A model generated the notes under the pieces. That model was not told the DNA's origin. It made no database searches and saw nothing but the letters and a program-made list of their open reading frames with translations. A stretch of 64,000 nt of DNA, taken from the NCBI RefSeq assembly GCF_044324785.1, contig NZ_CP172127.1, one strand, 5' to 3'. Origin of the DNA: Escherichia coli. Lineage in GTDB: Bacteria > Pseudomonadota > Gammaproteobacteria > Enterobacterales > Enterobacteriaceae. Of this stretch, positions 59,038-60,025 are shown piece by piece. Position numbers and translations under genes: made by a program. Position 1 is the first letter of the stretch; each line of letters begins with the position of its first letter.

Positions 59038-60025
59038 CGGATTAATGTTGGTGTATTTATTACACCAGCATTAATTTTCCTGGGGATGTATCTTCCTGTT
59101 CATTTAAGGTCAACTGCCTGACGTTTCTCTCCGAATATTCCATTATATTAATGTTGACTTGTTGACCAGCTTCGCCCTGTATGCTGGCATCAACTCTATT
59201 TTAGACTGAACACGCCACTCAGTTTCCTCCCTTTGCGACGCAGCCTGCATTTACACTCAAACTGTTAAGATGATAAATGTGGTAAATCTGTTGGTACTGA
59301 CATAAAAACGTTTACGCCACAGGAACGACCTGATCCATCGGTAACCCCATCGCCGACGTTCGAGTGCCAGTTAGAGTAACGCGCACAGATGACTGAATGC
59401 AGTGCCCTGGCAAAGAGGCCATCGTTCCTGTGACAACTGGCAGTCTTCGTTTAACTTCACTTAATTTGGCTCTTAGGGGGCTTACCGGACAGATGACGTA
59501 CTTACGCCTGTTTAATTTTTCATCACTTATTGGGATGAACACCCATAACCATTTTGTGCGGCATGTTAATCCATTAAAACACCTTACTGATTGGCAAATC
59601 ATCTTTAATTATGACTTATGATAGTTTTATATTCTATTTCTTATCATTTAAACTTGTTTTTTTACTAGTCCATTACACAACACATTAAGACTATTCCTAA
59701 CACCTCAGGGCAAAGTTCCTGGCTAATATAAAATGCAAGTAAGAATTGAACGTTATATTGCCAATAACCTTATGAAACTGAATGTCTTTTTCTTCTTATC
59801 AAAAAAGCAATATTTTCATTTTTTGTAAATATTGACTTAACCATGGAATTCATTTTCTGTTCACATATTGACACTCATCAGGAAAAAAACATAAATTTAA
59901 ACCTAATCGAAATAATTAAAACTTAATCTCGTTTAACCTATATTGATATGTGCTACGTATCTTATTTACTTCCGATTTACTAAAGAAACTGAATGTACCT
60001 GTAAAAATTACAGGTTTGGAAAGTA

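Follow-up and report, generated by a model that had tools for sequence, protein, structure and literature searches.

Composite Organization of the ykgO–ecpR Intergenic Interval of Escherichia coli, with a Probable Regulatory Module of the ecp Pilus Operon

Organization of the Interval

The DNA between ykgO and ecpR in the analyzed window (a stretch of 64,000 nucleotides of Escherichia coli contig NZ_CP172127.1) is the known intergenic region that leads from the ykgMO operon to the ecpRABCDE (matABCDEF) pilus operon. Taken as a whole, it is with high probability a composite interval: a terminator, ykgL, a neutral spacer, and an H-NS-silenced, EcpR-activated module. The locus governs a pilus present in most E. 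coli, and little about it is new: it has already been dissected experimentally, with EcpR/MatA, RcsB, IHF, and H-NS implicated. The ykgMO operon on its left is Zur-regulated.

The stop codon of ykgO was located at 58990, and the non-coding interval extended from 58991 to 60073, up to the ATG of ecpR at 60074. Four unlike parts make it up: terminator, ykgL, spacer, and ecp regulatory module. Of 5426 complete E. coli genomes, 5067 contained the stretch, invariably flanked by ykgO and ecpR; the synteny, with ecpA and ecpB coming after ecpR, was the same in these genomes.

The preliminary description had presented positions 59038–60025 as about 1 kb of AT-rich leader or regulatory DNA without convincing coding sequence. 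The overall G+C content of 36.4%, compared with 50.1% for the whole 64-kb window, agrees with this; uniform AT-richness does not hold. The values were 40.0% for 58991–59250, 45.8% for 59251–59545, and 29.0% for 59546–60073, and only the last of these parts was extreme: it contained the lowest-GC 500 bp of the whole 64 kb (0.16% of windows were equally low). The absence of convincing coding sequence was confirmed, since no conserved protein-coding gene fills the interval; the alignment with the K-12 interval, proposed earlier as a check, likewise revealed no conserved gene filling most of it.

Comparison Sequences and Divergence

Two E. coli sequence lineages, 7–8% apart, were recognized at the locus; the window belongs to the O157/N3-like haplogroup and not to the K-12-like one. 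The genome closest to the window was N3, K-12 was represented by two loci (L002 and L004), and the most informative outgroup was L005, a divergent Escherichia. Boxes, indels, and the A-tract were compared in a sample of 10 E. coli sequences. Footprinting across genera was limited to seven non-E. coli sequences because a search of genome contigs with EcpR gave only eight loci.

K-12 differed from the window by 7.1% in the intergenic DNA, and dS in ykgM, ecpR, and ecpA was 0.05–0.105. Hypervariability of the intergenic region among E. coli lineages was rejected: a divergence of 7% is what the synonymous sites of the flanking genes show as well. For L005, the dS of the flanking genes was 0.42–0.67, with a neutral background identity of ~63%; its identity to the window was 0.56–0.69 in 59291–59690 compared with 0.80–0.86 in the core 59691–59940.

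ykgMO Transcript End and ykgL

The ykgMO terminator (59019–59083, plus strand) comprised an 8-bp hairpin (59019–59037) and a long AT-rich hairpin (59039–59077), followed by TTTTCC. The fold of 58985–59100 had a free energy of −40 kcal/mol (z = −5.9), and none of 200 shuffled sequences was as stable. Segment 59041–59090 retained 80% identity to L005, well above the neutral background, and the K-12 substitutions preserve the stem, a wobble pair being replaced by A–T. A stable stem-loop with a U-tract directly past the ykgO stop corresponds to a putative intrinsic terminator. A simple terminator scan missed the hairpins because the stem has few G–C pairs; an Rfam scan of 57000–61000 with permissive filters gave only a chance-level folP match (E = 0.79) on these same hairpins. 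The left ~90 bp of the interval would end ykgMO transcription via the two hairpins and the U-tract.

The next ~170 bp, together with the hairpins, would carry ykgL on the opposite strand (59025–59250, minus strand), as positioned by RefSeq in K-12 and other strains. Its left end lies 13 bp to the left of 59038, the start coordinate of the preliminary description, and its 3′ end passes through the ykgO terminator hairpins. The window lacks a T near 59090 and a C near 59174 that are present in the K-12 haplogroup, which breaks the ykgL frame: translation in the K-12 frame reached a stop after 35 codons, short of the 75 codons of the intact gene, and left two remnants, the open reading frames 59143–59250 (35 aa) and 59060–59143 (27 aa). 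RefSeq labels ykgL “frameshifted” in the genomes closest to the window, N3 included, and it was frameshifted in the window and in all five other sampled genomes of the same haplogroup. A tblastn search with ykgL found nothing in the L005, Klebsiella, or Pantoea loci; the corresponding region of L005 had 42–46% identity and a 40-bp insertion. Neither Pfam nor NCBIfam gave a match to ykgL. Substitutions between the haplogroups (five synonymous and seven non-synonymous) were too few to exclude weak constraint where the frame is intact. The best reading of ykgL is an orphan ORF, dispensable or spurious; annotators should regard it as doubtful or decayed and, in this genome, as a pseudogene.

Central Spacer and Its Open Reading Frames

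Between ykgL and the ecp module lies an Escherichia-specific spacer (59251–59545, no strand assigned) in which constraint was not detected. Its identity to L005 was 0.62–0.69 over most of its length, near the prediction from the dS of the flanking genes, and nothing matching was found in Klebsiella or Pantoea. The RNA fold of the central region was not significant on either strand (z = −0.18 and −0.42), and Rfam revealed nothing in 59251–59545. These ~300 bp, found only in Escherichia, would drift at the neutral rate.

Two open reading frames pointed out earlier in the middle of the gap, 59312–59602 (minus strand, 96 aa) and 59397–59621 (plus strand, 74 aa), exist exactly as given, and the observation that they lack a Shine–Dalgarno sequence and a Pfam or NCBIfam match was confirmed. 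The suggestion that one of them might be ykgL was wrong, the annotated gene being the minus-strand frame described above. A 1-bp deletion at 59475 in the K-12 haplogroup splits the 96-aa frame into frames of 36 and 48 aa, and the same indel splits the 74-aa frame into frames of 32 and 43 aa. The 96-aa frame matched only eight E. coli clusters of “hypothetical” proteins of 60–126 aa. Neither frame is a conserved gene, and neither should be called a gene in annotation.

It would be surprising if the interval hid a real gene important to the cell, whether ykgL or one of these two frames, and for this window such a reading is already largely refuted. RefSeq does name “protein YkgL”, with an unbroken 75-aa frame in the K-12 haplogroup, to which about half of E. 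coli genomes belong; overlapping convergent transcripts of ykgL and ykgO were seen in K-12 RNA-seq (PMC12288877); “ykgL” reads increased alongside ykgMO in zinc-starved Nissle (PMC12279244); and both frames of the spacer stay open in the haplogroup of the window. Against this, ykgL is frameshifted in all six sampled genomes of the window's haplogroup, has 63 aa in O157, and is absent from L005; its 3′ end is formed by the ykgO terminator hairpins, and a rise alongside ykgMO would be expected from antisense read-through. As for the spacer frames, the indel in K-12, the lack of ribosome-binding sites and of family matches, the restriction of homologues of the 96-aa frame to E. coli (in the homology search with this frame), and the neutral-rate evolution of the region all argue against a gene.

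Extent of the ecp Regulatory Module and H-NS

The AT-rich ecp/mat regulatory module occupies 59546–60073 (plus strand), and its K-12 homologue is a target of H-NS. Homology to the regions upstream of ecpR in Klebsiella starts at 59546–59552; only the ecpR-proximal ~530 bp combine AT-richness with conservation alongside the operon in other genera. The regulatory role ascribed earlier to the interval largely stands, because the ecp/mat control region does precede ecpR, but it does not apply to the distal ~550 bp, which are terminator, decayed ykgL, and spacer. With regard to the silencing and antisilencing sites expected there, candidate activator boxes and a conserved promoter are present; cross-genus conservation is confined to the proximal part. 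The footprints conserved across genera provide a compact map of the important ~250 bp, on which reporter constructs or engineering could be based.

The segment from ~59660 to 60057 is homologous to the K-12 “promoter island” 310529_398 (U00096.2 coordinates mapped via L002 and L004), and several promoter-like sites were detected in it by a promoter scan. This island (ecpR/ykgL) is listed as H-NS-bound “according to all studies” and is associated with horizontally acquired genes (PMC3661553, Table 1). Deletion of hns derepresses ecpR in EHEC (PMC9263587); in Klebsiella, it derepresses ecpA and the assayed pilus regulatory genes, with ecpR among the qPCR targets (PMC4746245). H-NS silencing of ecp, invoked in the preliminary description, is therefore documented for the homologous K-12 region and these organisms. 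In the window, H-NS would coat the 29%-GC DNA and silence a conserved sigma-70 promoter.

The distal edge of the module is marked by a conserved block, ATAACCATTTTGTGCGGCATGTTAATCCATT (59546–59576, no strand assigned), with 84% identity over 31 nt in K. michiganensis. L005 and three of the five Klebsiella sequences share TTTGTGCGG, and K. indica alone lacks GTGCGG; the window and K-12 carry TTTGTGCGG too, and the cross-genus alignment starts past it there. This block is kept with Klebsiella for no known reason, and its minus strand contains a weak promoter-like arrangement, TTAACA-N16-TATGGG. Both features, and a perfect 11-bp inverted repeat with AGGAA/TTCCT (59318–59328 and 59422–59432), might be counted in favor of an unrecognised small RNA or a divergent transcript encoded by 59251–59620, for example one running leftward from 59546–59576 towards ykgL. 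Nevertheless, we consider such an RNA very improbable: the region lacks an Rfam match and excess fold stability on either strand, it is at neutral divergence, and NC_000913.3 annotates no sRNA in 59251–59620. The inverted repeat is lost in K-12 and L005 and is near chance level (~0.2 expected per 1.3 kb by our own estimate).

Promoter and Start of ecpR

A core sigma-70 promoter was found at 59868–59897 (plus strand), with the −35 element TTGACA (59868–59873), an 18-bp spacer containing an A7 tract, and the −10 element TAAATT (59892–59897). In the promoter scan, these elements agreed with the consensus at 10 of 12 positions, and both were invariant in all nine aligned sequences from three genera. 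In the literature, the promoter is placed 121 bp ahead of the first codon of ecpR. Position 59905 is 121 bp upstream of GTG 60026, the start annotated in NC_000913.3; from this we infer an ecp start site at ~59905, which depends on the start codon from which the 121 bp are counted.

The same distance fits a second promoter-like site, TTAAAA at 59916 separated by 17 bp from TATATT (59939–59944), because its start at ~59953 is exactly 121 bp upstream of ATG 60074. That this downstream site is the functional ecp promoter, instead of or besides TTGACA/TAAATT, seems unlikely, although it agrees with the consensus at 9 of 12 positions, has a 17-bp spacer, is moderately conserved in the divergent Escherichia, and lies in a promoter island, where many overlapping promoter-like sites occur. 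Klebsiella and Pantoea do not share it, in contrast to the invariant upstream elements, and the annotation in use at the time of promoter mapping, kept in NC_000913.3, takes the GTG as start (196 codons), which places the 121-bp point at 59905. Cross-genus conservation of the sequence thus appears to favor the TTGACA/TAAATT promoter over the downstream one.

Phase variation is common among fimbrial operons, and the A7 tract in the spacer of the TTGACA/TAAATT promoter is A8 in K-12; both facts would suit an invertible or repeat-based, fimS-like phase switch controlling the pilus. There is, however, scarcely any probability of such a switch. The promoter has no long flanking inverted repeats and no tandem repeats: the repeat search revealed only short (≤19 nt), imperfect or chance-level inverted repeats, and tandem repeats were not found. 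No recombinase gene is adjacent, and the orientation was constant in all genomes inspected. An inversion switch is refuted at the sequence level by the absence of flanking inverted repeats, recombinase, and orientation change; the A-tract is not hypermutable at the population scale because A7 was found in 9 of 10 E. coli sequences.

The ecpR (matA) gene (60074–60616, plus strand), the first of its operon, encodes a LuxR/GerE-type regulator, as indicated by NCBIfam and Pfam GerE; RefSeq gives the same start. The NCBIfam equivalog TranRegEcpR (180 model positions) matched residues 17–195 of the GTG-started ORF (E = 3.7e-101). GTG 60026 was not conserved: in the divergent Escherichia, the codon is GTA, and TAG TAA come after it in frame. 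At the same time, ATG 60074 and the GAGG preceding it (60059–60062) were conserved in Klebsiella and Pantoea. The right edge of the interval, placed earlier at 60025, should therefore be moved to 60073, and ecpR should be annotated from ATG 60074 (180 aa), not from the GTG of the K-12 reference.

Translation of ecpR would begin at ATG 60074 behind a 5′ leader of ~169 nt (59905–60073, plus strand), if the start site at 59905 holds. On the same condition, this is the only part of the interval to which the earlier term “leader” applies. The leader contains a hairpin (59996–60015) and the Shine–Dalgarno sequence GAGG; its overall fold was not significant (z = −1.58). Its identity to L005 was 0.66–0.84, with the minimum at 59991–60040, and it could not be aligned with Klebsiella except for the Shine–Dalgarno sequence and the start codon.

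Candidate EcpR–RcsB Operator

Upstream of the promoter, we found an RcsAB-box-like palindrome, TTAAGACTATTCCTAACA (59685–59702, plus strand), whose right half is the first of two TTCCT boxes. The second box follows after 17 bp; this pair (TTCCT-N17-TTCCT, 59694–59720, plus strand) is presumably that of Martinez-Santos et al. from 2012, who reportedly described a pair of TTCCT boxes, located at a long distance from the ecp promoter on its upstream side, as EcpR binding sites. The arrangement occurred once in 64 kb, compared with 0.11 expected by chance. Both boxes were identical in 10 of 10 E. coli sequences, and the second is wTCCT in Klebsiella and Pantoea. The palindrome and the TTCCT boxes lie ~185–220 bp upstream of the inferred start, the pair of boxes itself at ~185–211 bp.

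The 14-bp core of the palindrome, TAAGACTATTCCTA (59686–59699), differs from the RcsAB consensus TaAGaatatTCctA by one mismatch, at a weakly conserved position; the conserved positions of this consensus are T1, A3, G4, T10, C11, and A14 (PMC4325325, PMC3950696). A scan of the 64 kb with TaAGaatatTCctA identified this site as the sole match with at most one mismatch. The sequence TTAAGAnTAnTCnTAAC was found in eight of nine sequences from three genera, K. indica differing at three positions, and the Pantoea version of the box is a perfect palindrome. The right half of the RcsAB box is the RcsB half-site (PMC5651002, PMC3950696, PMC4325325). A MatA–RcsB heterodimer activates mat in the account of Pannen 2016 given in PMC5651002, and EcpR is known to act with IHF, with positive autoregulation and anti-H-NS action (PMC10038029, PMC5962669). 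From its sequence, 59685–59702 is a probable EcpR(MatA)–RcsB operator.

Closer to the promoter, the block CCAATAACCnTATGAAA (59761–59778, no strand assigned) was nearly invariant in Escherichia, Klebsiella, and Pantoea and might bind IHF or another architectural protein. We failed to find the exact IHF consensus WATCAANNNNTTR in the region; a single match with one mismatch (59808–59820) occurred in 59546–59905, where 1.4 are expected, i.e., no more than chance. We infer both the role of the RcsAB-like box as a heterodimer operator and the position of IHF. Most likely paired with RcsB in a heterodimer, EcpR would bind the RcsAB-type box and the adjacent TTCCT box and relieve H-NS silencing with IHF-assisted bending; with ecpR at the head of the operon, a positive feedback loop would result.

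More tentatively, and at somewhat less than an even chance, EcpR–RcsB could recognize an ancestral ecp operator in the form of an RcsAB-type palindrome, TTAAGAATATTCTTAA, which is perfect in Pantoea; the “two TTCCT boxes” of E. coli would then be a lineage-specific view of it. If so, the first box would be an RcsB half-site, and 59546–59576 would mark another, as yet unstudied element at the module's edge.

Comparison with Known Systems

In the window, ykgL resembles its K-12 counterpart (b0295, an uncharacterised 75-aa ORF) in position, strand, and convergence with ykgO; unlike it, the frame is broken by two 1-bp differences, and it is not conserved in the sister Escherichia lineage. The homology of ~59660–60057 to island 310529_398 relates the module to the promoter islands of K-12 (Panyukov and Ozoline 2013, PMC3661553). 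In contrast to the general picture of such islands, a single phylogenetically conserved promoter stands out in the window, and the island concept alone omits the activator boxes.

Among RcsB-heterodimer systems, RcsA–RcsB (cps/rcsA) and BglJ–RcsB (bgl/leuO) are the closest parallels: all strongly conserved positions of TaAGaatatTCctA are matched by TAAGACTATTCCTA, whose promoter-facing right half agrees with the RcsB half-site wwTTCykA, and here too the promoter would be H-NS-repressed and the activator would antagonize silencing. The candidate site differs in being located unusually far (~200 bp) upstream of the start and in being paired with a second TTCCT 17 bp away, and the auxiliary partner at this box would be EcpR/MatA. 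The nearest known system is the ecp (mat) region of EHEC, EPEC, and NMEC (Martinez-Santos et al. 2012, J Bacteriol 194:5020; Lehti 2012, 2013), from which nothing essential appears to differ: the locus directly upstream of ecpR is the same, with TTCCT-N17-TTCCT, a sigma-70 promoter, and AT-rich, presumably H-NS-silenced DNA, and the two lineages recognized here agree with the reported association of promoter polymorphism with phylogenetic group.

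Extent and base composition of the ykgO–ecpR interval

The window is from E. coli. Of 5426 complete genomes of this species, 5067 carry the region 58991–60025, each in a single copy and in a constant context, with ykgM (58587–58850) and ykgO (58847–58990) on the left and ecpR, followed by ecpA (60691–61278), on the right. In the RefSeq annotations of strain N3 (the closest genome, 99.8%), a K-12 derivative (92.7%), and O157:H7 (98.7%), the sole feature within the interval was ykgL or a "hypothetical protein" at ~59025–59250, on the strand opposite ykgO. As comparative evidence places the start of ecpR at ATG 60074, the non-coding interval is 58991–60073. 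Neither an invertible-switch architecture nor tandem repeats were found.

G+C content was 50.1% for the whole window and 36.2% for the interval, with marked heterogeneity: 40.0% at 58991–59250, 45.8% at 59251–59545, and 29.0% at 59546–60073, the last segment holding the lowest-GC 500-bp stretch of all 64 kb. The preliminary description, which took 59038–60025 for about 1 kb of AT-rich leader/regulatory region, had thus recorded something real, but imprecisely: ~0.5 kb adjoining ecpR is very AT-rich, while the other ~0.55 kb is unremarkable. Its reading of the half nearer ecpR essentially holds, but it misplaced ykgL.

Just upstream of ykgM, a perfect 16-bp palindrome, TTATGTTATAACATAA (58559–58574), was present, presumably the operator through which Zur would be expected to repress the ykgMO operon in response to zinc. 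The annotated small membrane protein YkgR is encoded by a 33-aa ORF at 58122–58223, MKENKVQQISHKLINIVVFVAIVEYAYLFLHFY, within another AT-rich patch (29–33% GC). Upstream of ykgR, the window carries ORFs at 50359–54612 (minus strand) and 55178–57112, including an intact 1417-aa ORF, whose K-12 counterpart is only an annotated inverse-autotransporter fragment, and 283-aa and 322-aa ORFs where strain N3 has an annotated LysR-family regulator and O157 an IS66 element; the left flank of ykgMO therefore varies between strains.

Putative ykgMO terminator and ykgL

Two plus-strand hairpins were predicted by folding: an 8-bp hairpin just past the ykgO stop (59019–59037) and a long AT-rich one followed by UUUU (59039–59077). 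The fold of this region (−40 kcal/mol, z = −5.9) was matched in stability by none of 200 shuffles, and pairing in the long stem was preserved by the K-12 substitutions. The hairpin block was 80% identical in a divergent Escherichia locus (L005, NZ_JAATUR010000022.1). The hairpins and U-tract form a putative ykgMO terminator, within which the annotated ykgL ORF terminates. The genome carrying L005, titled "Escherichia coli strain SCPM-O-B-8794", encodes an EcpR 87% identical to that of the window, and its dS to the window of 0.4–0.7 (ykgM, ecpA) greatly exceeds the divergence seen among E. coli strains; it is therefore probably a member of a cryptic clade or of another Escherichia species.

Ten E. 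coli sequences spread over the identity range fell into two haplogroups with 76–95 differences per ~1090 positions: K-12, COL60J, A11, and HCP4S3 on the one side, and the window, N3, AHB1, FDAARGOS_1282, 702/18, and O157 on the other. All four members of the K-12 haplogroup had an intact ykgL of 75 codons. In the window's haplogroup, a T is missing near 59090 and, outside O157, also a C near 59174; the ykgL ORF of this haplogroup ends after 35 codons (12 in 702/18 and 63 in O157), and RefSeq marks these copies as "frameshifted". In the window, ykgL is a pseudogene. The corresponding region of L005 showed 42–46% identity and a 40-bp insertion; tblastn gave no ykgL match in the L005, Klebsiella, or Pantoea loci, and YkgL was assigned to no Pfam or NCBIfam family. 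Over the species as a whole, ykgL has the look of an ORF that is either young or spurious. Overlapping convergent transcripts were reported for ykgL/ykgO (PMC12288877), and under zinc starvation "ykgL" rose together with ykgMO (PMC12279244); antisense read-through of ykgMO would give both patterns.

Middle spacer

The two ORFs named in the preliminary description, at 59312–59602 (minus strand, 96 aa) and 59397–59621 (plus strand, 74 aa), do exist, but neither is ykgL, which sits at ~59025–59250. They overlap in antisense and are carried by the segment of ordinary GC (59251–59545). In every sequence of the K-12 haplogroup, a 1-bp deletion at 59475 disrupts both, splitting the 96-aa frame into 36 + 48 aa and the 74-aa frame into 32 + 43 aa. 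In a search of 5.8 billion proteins, the 96-aa product matched nothing beyond eight clusters of "hypothetical proteins" (60–126 aa), all from E. coli. Identity to L005 over 59291–59590 (0.62–0.69) was about as predicted from dS of 0.42–0.67. The ecpR upstream regions of Klebsiella and Pantoea contained no counterpart of 59251–59545. Neither of its strands was more structured as RNA than expected (z = −0.18 and −0.42), Rfam gave no match, and K-12 has no sRNA annotated there. By these comparisons, the segment behaves as an unconstrained spacer.

The window and K-12 diverged by 7.1% over the interval, and their synonymous divergence was 0.105 in ykgM, 0.074 in ecpR, and 0.049 in ecpA. The apparent "promoter polymorphism" between the lineages does not exceed the neutral divergence of the locus as a whole. 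The spacer also holds a perfect inverted repeat of 11 bp, CACAGGAACGA/TCGTTCCTGTG (59318–59328/59422–59432), which includes AGGAA/TTCCT; it was not preserved in K-12 or L005 and is near chance expectation.

Start codon, predicted promoter, and leader of ecpR

In the K-12 reference annotation (NC_000913.3), matA/ecpR begins at a GTG (196 codons), equivalent to window position 60026. Comparative evidence supports ATG 60074 (180 codons) instead, because L005 has GTA at the GTG position followed by in-frame TAG and TAA within the extension, the NCBIfam EcpR model (180 positions) matches from residue 17 of the GTG-started ORF, and ATG 60074 with its Shine–Dalgarno sequence GAGG (60059–60062) is kept in Klebsiella and Pantoea, that is, in three genera in all.

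A consensus scan of the plus strand identified a predicted core promoter matching at 10 of 12 positions: TTGACA (59868–59873), an 18-bp spacer, and TAAATT (59892–59897), both hexamers being invariant across the three genera. The start predicted from it, A59905, is ~8 nt past TAAATT and 121 bp before GTG 60026. A weaker site, TTAAAA (59916)–N17–TATATT (59944), would give a start at ~59953, which is 121 bp before ATG 60074; because this site is not conserved outside Escherichia, transcription probably begins at 59905. The ecp promoter is reported 121 bp upstream of the first ecpR codon, a distance that suits either candidate. An eight-A run in the spacer (59880–59890; ~3380–3395 in the K-12 locus, L002) was found only in K-12, giving a 19-bp spacer, while all others in a small sample of 10 E. 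coli and 7 other-species sequences had 18 bp; this could contribute to poor pilus expression in K-12.

With a start at 59905, the leader comprises ~169 nt. Its fold was not significant (z = −1.6) and its conservation, apart from the Shine–Dalgarno sequence, was poor; thus, folding and conservation revealed no riboswitch-like element. In this non-significant minimum-energy fold, UUAAUCUCGU (59923–59932) pairs with AUGAGGUUAA (60059–60068), masking the Shine–Dalgarno sequence; both segments are kept in L005, but Klebsiella shows no clear sign of this pairing.

Conserved upstream module and its control

When the regions upstream of ecpR in five Klebsiella species, one Pantoea, and L005 were compared with the window by BLAST and MAFFT, homology began at ~59546. 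K. oxytoca has a divergent phnC-like ABC ATPase as the upstream neighbour, and the gap before ecpR is ~900 bp; a long upstream region thus accompanies the operon whatever its neighbour. Homology with Klebsiella has its distal edge at the block ATAACCATTTTGTGCGGCATGTTAATCCATT (59546–59576), which was 84% conserved over 31 nt; it matched no known motif, and its minus strand contains a weak promoter-like TTAACA–N16–TATGGG. No conserved small ORF was found in the AT-rich part: candidates of 25 and 31 aa either lost their start codons in L005 or had about one-third of residues changed between haplogroups.

At least eight of the nine aligned sequences share the following footprints: TTAAGAnTAnTCnTAAC (59685–59702), AAGwTCCTGG (59713–59722), ATATAAwA (59726–59733), CCAATAACCnTATGAAA (59761–59778), a block with TTGACA inside (59863–59878), an A-tract with the invariant TAAATT, and the Shine–Dalgarno sequence with the start codon of ecpR. 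The first of them is predicted to be an RcsAB-type box: TAAGACTATTCCTA (59686–59699) has one mismatch to TaAGaatatTCctA, a consensus confirmed in the literature (PMC4325325, PMC3950696), and no other site in 64 kb is as good. The RcsB half-site wwTTCykA is matched by its right half, which points toward the promoter and constitutes the first of two TTCCT boxes. The window holds a single TTCCT–N17–TTCCT pair (59694–59720), where 0.11 would be expected, and this pair was identical in 10/10 E. coli sequences. In the work of Martinez-Santos 2012, EcpR reportedly binds two TTCCT boxes far upstream of the ecp promoter; those at 59694–59720 probably correspond to them. The architecture is consistent with the phosphorylation-independent heterodimer of MatA/EcpR with RcsB reported by Pannen 2016 (as cited in PMC5651002).

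At the primary ecpR loci of Klebsiella, TCTTA/ATCCT variants stand in place of the exact TTCCT pair. Within a few kb downstream of its first ecpR, on the same contig, K. oxytoca NBRC 105695 carries another, more divergent ecpR-like gene (58% identity), with its own exact TTCCT–N17–TTCCT ~470 bp upstream (3529–3555 of locus L012).

Table 1 of PMC3661553 gives a K-12 "promoter island", 310529_398, labelled ecpR(−)/ykgL(+), as bound by H-NS "according to all studies". The U00096.2 numbering of this island fits the K-12 derivative without the 776-bp shift, not NC_000913.3, and places it at ~59660–60057 of the window, in the heart of the AT-rich module. Deletion of hns raised ecpR expression in EHEC (PMC9263587), and in K. 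pneumoniae that of ecpA and the assayed pilus regulatory genes, ecpR being among the qPCR targets (PMC4746245). EcpR/MatA is described as autoactivating and as an antagonist of H-NS (PMC5962669), aided by IHF (PMC10038029); a scan with the IHF consensus did not locate a site.

Comparison with the known system

Only three points are mildly new: the conservation across genera of the RcsAB-type palindrome and core promoter, the conserved and unexplained block at 59546–59576, and the evidence that both ykgL and the GTG start of ecpR represent either decay or artefacts of annotation. All parts of the interval map onto a well-studied system.
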